From positions 24,700-88,699 of IMG/VR virus record IMGVR_UViG_3300045988_176129: a DNA stretch of 64,000 nucleotides. One strand, given 5' to 3'. Below are positions 57,393-59,882 of the stretch, in pieces; position 1 is the stretch's first letter, and each line of letters begins with the position of its first letter. Under the pieces are notes generated by a model. That model saw nothing but the letters and a program-made list of their open reading frames with translations, was not told the origin of the DNA and made no database searches. Source of the DNA: a virus. Both the position numbers and the translations under genes were made by a program.

Positions 57393-58502
57393 GTGATAAA
57401 AATGAATAAAATAAAAGAATTAGTTGATAAGCTTAATTATTATACTAAGTTATATGATGAAGGACAGCCGAAAATTTCAGATAAAGAATGGGATGATATG
57501 TACTTTAAACTTGTGGCTCTTGAGAAAGAAACGGGAATCTATCTTCCAGATTCGCCAACACAAAAAGTAAATTTTACTATTATATCAAAGCTTGAAAAAG
57601 TTAAACATGACCATTTAATGTTATCTTTAAACAAGACTAAAACAATAGACGATATAGCATCCCTTATTAAAGATAATAAATATATTGGTATGTGTAAAAT
57701 GGACGGTTTGACTTGTTCTTTAACTTATAAGGATGGAAAACTTATTAAGGCTGAAACAAGAGGTAACGGAGAAATAGGGGAAAATATTTTACACAATGCT
57801 TTAGTAATTCCCTCAATCCCGAATAAAATAAATAATAAAAATGAAATAGTTGTTGATGGAGAAATAATTTGTACATATGAAAATTTTAAAAAGTTTGAAA
57901 AAGACTATGAGAATCCTCGAAATTTTGCAGCAGGTTCAATAAGGCTTCTAAATAGTAAGGAAAGTTACAATAGACATTTAACTTTTGTTGCATGGGATGT
58001 AATTAGAGGAATAGATAAAACCTTATTGAGTGAAAAATTAACTGCATTAGAAGATTTAGGATTTAAAGTAGTTCCATTTTTAGGCACAAAATTTAATAGT
58101 CCTAATATTATTCAAGATATGATAAATCATTTAAAAGATAAGGCAAAAGATTTAGATTATCCTATTGATGGAATTGTATTTAAAATTGATAATATAAAAT
58201 TATTTAATGATGCAGGAAGAACTGCACATCATTTTTCAGGTGGAATCGCATATAAATTTTACGATGAAGAATACGAAACTGAATTGGAAGATATTGAATG
58301 GACAATGGGAAGGACAGGCGTACTTACTCCAGTAGCTATATTTAAACCAGTTAGAATTGAAGGCTCAACAGTAACTAGAGCAAGTCTTCATAATATTAGT
58401 ATAATGAAAGCTTTATTAGGAGATGACCCTTATATAGGACAGAAAATTTGGGTAATTAAATCAAATCAAATAATTCCTCAAATAACGCGAGCGGAGGTGT
58501 AA
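57393..58502 (+). CDS. ligA: NAD-dependent DNA ligase, N-terminal fragment (Ia + adenylation + OB domains)
   Basis: Adenylation lysine motif CKMDGLT; OB block SLHNISIMKALLGDDPYIGQKIWVIKSNQIIPQI parallels LigA ATLHN...GD.V...RAGDVIPQV. Confidence 0.75.
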   Translation: MIKMNKIKELVDKLNYYTKLYDEGQPKISDKEWDDMYFKLVALEKETGIYLPDSPTQKVNFTIISKLEKVKHDHLMLSLNKTKTIDDIASLIKDNKYIGMCKMDGLTCSLTYKDGKLIKAETRGNGEIGENILHNALVIPSIPNKINNKNEIVVDGEIICTYENFKKFEKDYENPRNFAAGSIRLLNSKESYNRHLTFVAWDVIRGIDKTLLSEKLTALEDLGFKVVPFLGTKFNSPNIIQDMINHLKDKAKDLDYPIDGIVFKIDNIKLFNDAGRTAHHFSGGIAYKFYDEEYETELEDIEWTMGRTGVLTPVAIFKPVRIEGSTVTRASLHNISIMKALLGDDPYIGQKIWVIKSNQIIPQITRAEV

Positions 58503-58504
58503 AA

Positions 58505-59086
58505 ATGATAGATTGTTTATACAGTAAATATAAAACTTGGTCACTTTTTGGAAGTATATATATTATTTCAGACACTCATTTTGGAGACAAAGATTGCAAA
58601 TATATGGATGAGAATTGGATAACTCCAGAAGAGCATGTCAGTATTATAAATAAAAGTGTCGGTAAAAATGACACTTTGATTTGTCTTGGAGATTGTGGAG
58701 ATTTATCTTATTTTAAAGATATTAAAGCTGATTATAAAGTTTTAATAAAAGGAAACCATGATGATGGAAAAAAGTCTCGCTATCGTGTAATATTTGATGA
58801 AGTATATGACGGCCCATTATTCATAACCCCAAAGTTAGTGTTATCGCACGAGCCACTTCCAGTAATGCCTTATTATCTTAATATACATGGACACGATCAT
58901 TCTGATAGATCGCACTCACCATATCATATTAATTTAGCGGCAAACATAGTAAATTATCAGGTATTTAACTTGGGAAAGGAAATAAGGAAAGGCATTTTAT
59001 CTCCAATTGTAGATATACATAGATACACAATAGACAATGCAATAAAAGATAAGGAGAGAAAACATGAAGATTTTTACAATTCCTAA
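58505..59086 (+). CDS. metallophosphoesterase inserted between the two ligA fragments
   Basis: SDTHFGDKD ... LGDCGD ... GNHD ... GHDH; paralog of the 49186 gene. Confidence 0.7.
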   Translation: MIDCLYSKYKTWSLFGSIYIISDTHFGDKDCKYMDENWITPEEHVSIINKSVGKNDTLICLGDCGDLSYFKDIKADYKVLIKGNHDDGKKSRYRVIFDEVYDGPLFITPKLVLSHEPLPVMPYYLNIHGHDHSDRSHSPYHINLAANIVNYQVFNLGKEIRKGILSPIVDIHRYTIDNAIKDKERKHEDFYNS

Positions 59087-59882
59087 AATATGTCCGATAT
59101 GCGGAGGAGATACTAAGATTATAGTAAGCGACTCTGGAGTTGAGAATCTTATATGCGACAATCCGCAATGTCAAGGAAAACTAATCAATAGATTAGACCA
59201 TTATGCAGGCAAGAAAGGACTTGATATTAAAGGACTCTCAAAAGCCACCCTTGAGAAATTGATTGATTGGGAGTGGGTTTCTTCTATATCTGATTTATAT
59301 AGATTAAAAGACAAAAAAGTAGAGTGGGGGAATAAACCTGGATTTGGAGATAAATCAGTAGCTAATATTCTTGAAGCTATTGAAAATAGTAAGAATTGTT
59401 CTCTTGAAGCTTTTATTTCTGCATGTGGGATTCCTCTTATAGGAAGAACAATAGCTAAAGAGTTATGTAATCATTTTGACTCTTGGGAAAGTTTTAGAGA
59501 ATATATTAAGAGCAATAAATCTTTTGAAGATTTTTATGGGTTTGGATATGAAATGGATAAATCTTTAAAAGATTTTGATTTTACTGAATTAGATAATATT
59601 AAAAAGAATTTCCTAACAATAGAAAACAATGCTAAGTCAAAAGATGAAAAGTTAAAGGGAAAGATATTTGTTATTACAGGAAAACTTTTTACCTATAAGA
59701 ATAGAGATGCAATTAAGACGGATATTGAAAATAAGGGCGGCAAGGTAGCTTCCGCGATTTCTTCTAAAACATCTTTCTTAATAAATAATGATATTAATAG
59801 TACATCTTCTAAGAATAAAAAGGCTAAAGATTTAGGAATCCCTATTATAACCGAGCAAGATTTTATTAATAATTATTGTTGA
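59064..59882 (+). CDS. ligA: NAD-dependent DNA ligase, C-terminal fragment (Zn-finger + HhH + BRCT)
   Basis: CPICGG...CDNPQC zinc finger, HhH region, BRCT KGKIFVITGKL. Confidence 0.75.
   Translation: MKIFTIPKICPICGGDTKIIVSDSGVENLICDNPQCQGKLINRLDHYAGKKGLDIKGLSKATLEKLIDWEWVSSISDLYRLKDKKVEWGNKPGFGDKSVANILEAIENSKNCSLEAFISACGIPLIGRTIAKELCNHFDSWESFREYIKSNKSFEDFYGFGYEMDKSLKDFDFTELDNIKKNFLTIENNAKSKDEKLKGKIFVITGKLFTYKNRDAIKTDIENKGGKVASAISSKTSFLINNDINSTSSKNKKAKDLGIPIITEQDFINNYC

Follow-up and report, generated by a model that had tools for sequence, protein, structure and literature searches.

A probable two-subunit NAD+-dependent DNA ligase with a phosphoesterase gene between its halves in a family of gut and rumen phages

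Introduction

NAD-dependent DNA ligase subunits A and B are annotated in phage T5 and its relatives, and the genome papers treat this two-part ligase as a working enzyme (PMC3632103, PMC4319617). A similarly divided ligase is described here from a 64,000-nucleotide stretch of viral DNA (positions 24,700 to 88,699 of IMG/VR record IMGVR_UViG_3300045988_176129; hereafter the window, to whose numbering all coordinates refer). Two plus-strand genes, called ligN and ligC, encode the N-terminal and C-terminal parts of the enzyme and are separated by a complete metallophosphoesterase gene. An earlier interpretation of the bare sequence (the sequence-only reading) had offered three explanations for this layout: a genuinely two-subunit ligase, a gene disrupted by a mobile cassette, or an unconventional intervening sequence.

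In T5-like phages (Demerecviridae), as in the window, the ligase genes ligA and ligB (PHROG 3359 and PHROG 3498) are two same-strand cistrons in the replication module, and alignment with the subunits of phages Spivey and Cody placed their break in the same linker, the one that joins the OB fold to the zinc finger. What lies between the T5-type subunits varies, with about 200 nt of non-coding sequence in Spivey, small open reading frames (ORFs) in D308, and, in the T5-like Vibrio phage Cody, an ORF of no assigned function together with a DprA-like gene that is not an endonuclease. Unlike the T5 type, the window family contains intact and split ligases side by side, and in the window a metallophosphoesterase gene, coupled in translation to both halves, lies between them. 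The window halves are about 23-35% identical to the T5-type subunits. T5-like ligases formed the outgroup in a ligase tree and were separated from the window clade by intact ligases, a topology that does not support common descent of the two splits; from these sequences the window split is judged to have arisen independently of the T5-type split.

Essential phage genes that have been divided into two parts, in many cases by a free-standing homing endonuclease, form the class known as "genes in pieces", examples of which are nrdA/mobE of Aeh1, topoisomerase genes 39/60 of T4 with mobA, and gene 43 of phage 25 with a seg-like gene; the split NrdA of Aeh1 and the split gp43 of phage 25 reassemble and are active (PMC2988022). 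The window locus resembles this class in that an essential enzyme is cut at a tolerated site into two cistrons with an ORF between them, in that related phages carry the uninterrupted gene, and in that endonuclease genes occupy the same ligase junction in relatives (labeled here L012, L094, L068, L033, L062, L120 and L021). It differs in that the window insert is a small metallophosphoesterase with no recognizable endonuclease, and in that the split persists without any insert in relatives L119 and L063.

Phosphoesterases encoded together with polynucleotide ligases are also known from bacteria. PdeM (TIGR04123) is the phosphoesterase of bacterial Lig-Lhr-PdeM operons, and the Pnkp protein of Clostridium thermocellum carries a phosphoesterase domain; in both cases the partner is an ATP-dependent ligase. 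The window shares with them a calcineurin-type phosphoesterase encoded with a polynucleotide ligase, but its ligase is NAD-dependent and its phosphoesterase scores only 24 bits with the PdeM model against a cutoff of 150, over residues 78-132 alone (55 residues), and so falls outside that family. The window locus is a further two-subunit phage LigA, of the kind already known from T5, whose cargo is not an endonuclease.

Results

Organization of the ligase locus

The ligN gene (57402..58502, plus strand) encodes a 366-residue N-terminal subunit that comprises domain Ia, the nucleotidyltransferase domain with the KxDG lysine (K99), and the OB fold. Mechanical ORF calling extends the gene to a GTG (57393-58502, 369 residues), and this GTG falls within the Shine-Dalgarno (SD) sequence GAGGTG; the real start is likely the ATG at 57402, which gives the same length as independent gene calls. 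Pfam searches matched DNA_ligase_aden (PF01653, expectation value (E) 2e-47) and DNA_ligase_OB (PF03120, 2e-22) in ligN. Domain Ia is on record as PF22745 (Nlig-Ia) for the 366-residue protein, with the alignment to LigA structures beginning at residue 8-9, and the ligN sequences CKMDG (K99), DGEI, DGIVFK and AYKF line up with the corresponding motifs of T. filiformis LigA, the KxDG motif and motifs III-V of the nucleotidyltransferase. The ligC gene (59064..59882, plus strand) encodes the 272-residue C-terminal subunit, consisting of a Cys4 zinc finger with all of its cysteines present (C10, C13, C31 and C36), an HhH region with weak Pfam matches, and a BRCT domain (5.5e-12). PHROG 3359 covers ligN and PHROG 3498 covers ligC.

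Over the 664 positions of the NCBIfam LigA model PRK07956, ligN corresponds to 2-383 and ligC to 396-662, and either half alone falls below the NCBIfam cutoffs for full-length LigA. In a comparison with the solved structure of E. coli LigA (2OWO), residues 8-389 were matched by ligN and 404-666 by ligC; the matches end at 389|404, and the break therefore lies exactly at the boundary between the OB fold and the zinc finger. The sequence-only reading had assigned domain Ia, the adenylation domain and the OB fold to the first ORF, up to the zinc-finger boundary, and the zinc finger, HhH and BRCT to the ORF at 59064-59882, and both assignments agree with these comparisons. Alignment to the intact LigA of relatives, which it had proposed as a check, showed the two halves to be flush with uninterrupted homologs, with no conserved residue lost at the junction and no intein-like extra residues on either side of it.

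The ligN stop codon (TAA, 58500-58502) is separated by 2 nt from the ATG (58505) of the metallophosphoesterase gene (58505..59086, plus strand), a 193-residue ORF of the phrog_547 type. The end of this ORF overlaps the start of ligC by 23 nt; the gene is complete and on the same strand as both halves, as first described. The interval from the ligN stop to the ligC start measures 561 nt, nearly all of it coding and under selection. The ligC gene lies in a different frame from ligN and has its own SD site and ATG. With a stop at 58500-58502, another gene in between and a separate start at 59064, the locus does not encode a single-polypeptide LigA. No megablast match to the ligase region was found among annotated phages, and protein identity to the nearest annotated relatives is about 42%.

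Conservation of the split and selection on each gene

The ligN-phosphoesterase-ligC arrangement was found in at least 15 independently assembled contigs. At least six contigs from different samples encode an identical phosphoesterase protein between ligN and ligC, and further contigs, whose phosphoesterases are 82-88% identical, have the same layout with ORFs of 366, 193 or 194, and 272 residues. In a deeper lineage, L115, identity to the window is 64% for the phosphoesterase and 77% for ligC. The recurrence of the arrangement in independent contigs from different samples rules out an assembly or frameshift artefact, and no internal stops or frameshifts were found in either ligase half across the diverged lineages carrying the split.

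The ratio of nonsynonymous to synonymous divergence (dN/dS, or ω; Nei-Gojobori method) was calculated between diverged lineages that all carry the split. It was 0.05-0.15 for ligN, 0.06-0.12 for ligC and 0.11-0.26 for the phosphoesterase, at dS values from about 0.3 to more than 1. Because all of the measured divergence postdates the split, both halves and the inserted gene have been kept by selection. Together with the occurrence of the same split in T5-like phages, this supports the first of the three explanations, a two-subunit ligase.

Transcription and translation signals

A terminator-like hairpin (57322..57345, plus strand; a stem of 10 bp, 5 of them GC pairs, and then a T run) lies after the upstream gyrA-like gene and forms the 5' boundary of the ligase unit. 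It is followed directly by a promoter, TTGATT-17-TATAAT (57346..57384, plus strand), which contains the phage-specific motif TTATAATATATATAGAA (57368-57384). This motif, which resembles an extended -10 element, occurs 13 times in the window against 0.38 copies expected by chance, and 12 of the 13 copies are on the plus strand; its sites include 11426, 25416, 30328, 41328, 57368 and 59901. Presumably it represents the consensus of early or middle promoters that belong to the phage itself. The next promoter with the motif (59879..59917, plus strand; motif at 59901) marks the 3' boundary of the unit, and the window-wide motif count placed no copy between ligN and ligC. With a terminator and promoter before ligN, the next motif after ligC and none in between, the three genes form one transcription unit. 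Both downstream cistrons have a strong SD site: GGAGGTG (58493..58499, plus strand), within the last ligN codons, for the phosphoesterase gene, and AAGGAGAG (59051..59058, plus strand), within the 3' end of the phosphoesterase ORF, for ligC.

The intervening gene as a probable passenger

Two closely related lineages differ at this site. L115 has the phosphoesterase and L119 lacks it, and their flanking sequences are 94-97% identical in nucleotides on both sides. The difference is a clean indel of the phosphoesterase ORF, bounded by an imperfect SD-ATG repeat of about 15 nt; the phosphoesterase gene of the window has the same SD-ATG motif at its start. In L119 the ligase is still split, into a ligN of 372 residues and a ligC of 271 residues whose ORFs overlap by 10 nt, and comparison of its ligC with that of L115 gave a ω of 0.09, indicative of purifying selection. 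Since the phosphoesterase has been gained or lost between near-identical sisters while the ligase is split and selected in both, it is a passenger gene in the ligase linker slot. The ligase-site phosphoesterases form one clade in a neighbor-joining (NJ) tree, and a comparison of the window lineage with L115 gave similar dS values for the phosphoesterase (1.19) and ligC (1.37). Most simply, the gene was acquired a single time, by the ancestor that the window clade shares with the L115/L119 lineage, and L119 later lost it. As to the suggested disruption by a mobile cassette, the sister indel and the homing endonucleases found at the junction in relatives bear out that part of it which concerns origin; the ligase has not been inactivated. 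A pseudogene or a sequencing frameshift, which the sequence-only reading had named as grounds for refutation, is likewise at odds with the layout shared by so many contigs and with the selection on the insert-free L119 ligC.

The 193-residue protein matched phrog_547 at 2e-20 and Metallophos_2 weakly, and all metallophosphoesterase motifs are present. The metal-binding motifs DxH, GD, GNH[DE], H and GHxH lie on an α/β sandwich fold, as expected for the calcineurin-like superfamily, and D23, H25, D63, N84, H85, H115 and H130 are invariant in 58 homologs. An AlphaFold2 (AF2) model with a predicted local distance difference test score (pLDDT) of 93.9 consists of a single compact domain and one helix. 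The sole confident match in a fold search was 1XM7, the uncharacterized Aquifex protein AQ_665 (E 5e-11), with the Vps29, LpxH and Mre11 folds far behind, and a sequence search of the PDB with the phosphoesterase gave no match. Only metallophosphoesterase families were matched, and none of the homing endonuclease types (HNH, GIY-YIG, LAGLIDADG etc.). The fold is established, and catalytic competence is likely, judging from the conserved residues and the predicted model.

A pattern search of IMG/VR recovered no relative of the phosphoesterase; relatives were found in a large protein collection. One homolog, 43% identical, lies between gyrA and an intact ligase, directly upstream of the latter, in L049/L056; another, 58% identical, lies inside the RNA ligase/kinase cluster of L114; and in L117 a homolog adjoins primase and PolIII. 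Within the window, the ORF at 49186-49749 (187 residues, phrog_547) is 27% identical to the ligase-site protein (E 7e-5), and the ORF at 47527-48303 (258 residues, phrog_1649) shares similarity with it at the level of motifs only. Sequence comparison marks the three window phosphoesterases as old, anciently diverged paralogs with no sign of recent proliferation. The earlier statement that the same family occurs twice more in the window thus holds for the ORF at 49186 and not for that at 47527, and the proliferating gene that it suggested finds no support.

The GC content of the insert (0.30-0.33) lies within that of its flanks (0.26-0.34), with no compositional anomaly. A 13-nt direct repeat flanking it, at 58472 and 59078 (12 of 13 positions matching), was set aside; it corresponds to the conserved IIPQI and TIPKI codons and is not clearly beyond chance in DNA of 30% GC.

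The two other window phosphoesterases belong to an end-repair-like cluster (45984-49749) that contains an RNA ligase (45984-47219), a zinc-ribbon ORF and the phosphoesterase ORFs at 47527-48303 and 49186-49749. The ORF at 48699-49193 holds the position of the AAA_33 kinase gene of L114 and contains a P-loop-like GIPGSGKST sequence, and is a candidate kinase by position and motif. In L114 the RNA ligase-kinase slot holds the 58%-identical homolog of the ligase-embedded phosphoesterase instead.

Recurrent breaks at one linker

The window phage is one of a large family of phages from gut and rumen with genomes of about 100-200 kb. Among the unique IMG/VR ligases of this group, roughly nine out of 10 are single ORFs and one out of 10 is broken, always in the short, variable-length linker between IIPQI·RAEK and IP··CP·CG. 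A rough NJ tree was built from 130 unique ligases, of which 106 are intact; parsimony on this tree required at least 12 switches between intact and split ligases, and many split loci have close intact sisters. The breaks in the relatives represent no fewer than 11 independent events. Stand-alone proteins of 267-300 residues made up 92 of the best 120 ligC matches in the large protein collection, a proportion that search bias may have affected.

The content of the break differs among these relatives. An HNH/EndoVII-like endonuclease is present in L012 and L120, a homing endonuclease of the phrog_9084/559 type, whole or decayed, in L094, L068, L033, L062 and L176, and a GIY-YIG remnant in L021, and no insert is present in L063 and L119. 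An ORF of about 100 residues without an assigned family lies in the break in L051 (1289-1582), L120 (4057-4347), L121 (4712-5026) and L197 (~8463-8753). These ORFs (96-104 residues), which were searched for with a hand-made motif pattern, have no Pfam or PHROG match and share the conserved motifs TD·NGL and PW·ETTG. They were seen only between ligN and ligC, always directly upstream of ligC, in four separate ligase lineages, and in two of the four they follow an HNH-like gene or an endonuclease remnant. A sliding-window comparison of ligase identity among the carriers, made to look for co-conversion, gave no tract distinct from controls. The ORF could be a homing-endonuclease hitch-hiker or encode an accessory protein of the ligase.

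A second split site before the OB domain was considered as well, given the many matches in the ligC search that start with "MGRTG", and was rejected, the internal stops being all TAG and the proteins coming from recoded relatives that are miscalled under the standard code. In-frame stops that are exclusively TAG occur within the conserved ligase of L041 (6027, 6600), L061 (5264, 6336, 6567) and L137 (4130, 4136, 4862), which indicates that phages with a reassigned TAG codon exist within the window family; this recoding accounts for the truncated ligase calls starting with "MGRTG".

Neighboring genes

The gene order conserved in relatives runs from a gyrA-like gene across a variable gap to the ligase, and on through a small helix-turn-helix (HTH) gene and a GIY-YIG-domain gene to thyX. 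The gap between gyrA and the ligase ranges from 60 to 1500 nt. The gyrA-like gene of the window (54953-57325) is about 65% identical in nucleotides to that of L108/L109 (335-2668), compared with about 90% for the adjoining ligN and ligC, which puts a sharp boundary of mosaic recombination between the gyrA-like gene and the ligase genes. The GIY-YIG-domain gene of the window (60723-61697) encodes a 324-residue protein with a GIY-YIG domain (homing-endonuclease PHROGs 7168 and 314) and an N-terminal coiled coil. The gene is syntenic in nearly all relatives and thus behaves as a core gene and not as a mobile endonuclease.

Discussion

It is quite probable, as judged from sequence, that the window encodes a functional two-subunit NAD+-dependent DNA ligase, expressed from a three-gene operon (ligN, phosphoesterase, ligC) in which the phosphoesterase is a passenger. 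An ancestral single LigA gene, still intact in most relatives, would have broken where a short, variable linker joins the OB fold to the zinc finger. Breaks at this linker have occurred repeatedly in the window family, usually with a free-standing homing endonuclease present, and the break is fixed in T5-like phages. The phosphoesterase occupies the inter-cistronic slot and would borrow the ligase promoter, and it can be lost without re-fusion of the ligase. One mRNA would start from the promoter at 57346-57384, and the 2-nt gap, the 23-nt overlap and the strong SD site before each downstream gene would couple translation of the three cistrons. The structure and function of LigA, known from the 2OWO structure and from domain-deletion studies, underlie the division of labor proposed for the subunits. 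LigN would perform all of the adenylyl-transfer chemistry, with domain Ia for NAD+ recognition, K99 in KxDG, and the OB fold, and LigC, with the zinc finger, HhH and BRCT, would be the DNA-binding part and supply most of the DNA binding. The two would assemble non-covalently around the nick through the native OB-zinc finger and nucleotidyltransferase-HhH contacts.

A foreign ORF that interrupts a single-chain enzyme is the usual signature of disruption, and the halves could in principle be pseudogene remnants of a ligase killed by the insertion. The selection analysis effectively refutes this: dN/dS is 0.05-0.15 on both halves at dS up to about 2, the ORFs keep exactly the same lengths, no catalytic or zinc-binding motif is lost and strong SD sites precede the downstream cistrons, all of which makes a decaying gene extremely improbable. 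Next to no credence can be given to an intron, intein or translational bypass that holds the phosphoesterase ORF and restores a single-chain ligase at the RNA or protein level. ORF-bearing group I introns and inteins are frequent in phage genes, and the insert does lie at a conserved region of an essential gene, but an Rfam search of 57000-60300, even at E <=1, found no intron family, ligN ends in a stop codon, ligC has its own signals in another frame, the flush halves carry no intein residues, nearly the whole 561-nt interval is coding and selected, and the insert-free L119 has two overlapping ORFs, unlike the product of a precise intron loss. The unconventional intervening sequence of the sequence-only reading is dismissed on the same grounds.

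The remaining alternatives give the phosphoesterase a larger part. In one, which we regard as unlikely, it is the ligase's partner in a heal-and-seal module, removing 3'-phosphate, 2',3'-cyclic phosphate or other blocks, its putative substrates, before sealing, and perhaps touching both halves. Its translational coupling between the halves, the purifying selection on it, the homolog directly upstream of the intact ligase in L049/L056, the other family members in replication/repair modules or an RNA ligase/kinase end-repair cluster, and the weak match to the ligase-associated PdeM model would suit such a role. L119, however, keeps a selected split ligase without it, most relatives have no phosphoesterase beside their ligase, the PdeM score is far below its cutoff, the nearest structure (1XM7) is functionally uncharacterized, and proximity in phage genomes is weak evidence of partnership. 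It is most unlikely that the phosphoesterase is itself mobile, a nuclease of the Mre11/SbcD superfamily that acts as a homing endonuclease of a new type and both cut and entered the ligase gene at the linker. Such a nuclease would account for its occupying a site held by bona fide homing endonucleases in relatives, for the clean indel between genomes that are 94-97% identical and for family members at several different genomic positions, and Mre11 nucleases are among its fold relatives, with weak scores (E >0.01, template modeling (TM) score ~0.3). Against it, the ligase-site phosphoesterases look vertically inherited, forming a single clade whose dS matches that of the flanks; the protein, a compact domain with one helix, has no DNA-binding or recognition domain; and the family behaves as an ordinary conserved phage accessory enzyme. 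It is very unlikely that either this idea of a homing nuclease aimed at the ligase linker holds or, more mildly, that the junction genes (the phosphoesterase and the ~100-residue ORF) are dedicated ligase accessory subunits; if the milder version were true, the break would be an adaptive route to a modular nick-repair machine.

Several points weigh against a functional two-subunit ligase with a passenger phosphoesterase. A literature search found no paper on the biochemistry of the T5 split ligase, nor on separate LigN and LigC proteins forming an active ligase. In the alignments no docking extension has been added to either half, which places their mutual affinity in question. The window covers 64 kb of a genome of about 140 kb, and a second ligase may be encoded elsewhere. 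In L065, a 394-kb contig, a ligN-only ORF (4959-6062) ends at the same linker (…IIPQIAKAEK*) with no ligC detected within 5 kb downstream, so that ligN may in some cases act by itself or with a partner encoded far away. The margin of the ligase-site phosphoesterase clade is modest (65% identity, versus <=61% to phosphoesterases at other sites). The break may have been made by insertion of the phosphoesterase, or the phosphoesterase may have replaced an earlier endonuclease.

The two-subunit ligase of the window is a natural case, independent of T5, in which LigA tolerates a cut at the linker between the OB fold and the zinc finger and stays under selection. That a split LigA remains selected implies that the catalytic and DNA-binding halves may assemble non-covalently around a nick. 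Ligase proteins of ~270 and ~370 residues in gut and rumen phage catalogues should accordingly be annotated as subunits, not as fragments. The phosphoesterase itself may merit less attention than the numerous independent breaks at a single linker, the splits without an insert and the junction-specific family of ~100-residue ORFs. Insofar as intact, insert-free split, endonuclease-split and cargo-split ligases occur side by side in one phage family, this family is suited to two questions, namely how "genes in pieces" originate and how an inter-cistronic slot becomes a landing pad for accessory genes.

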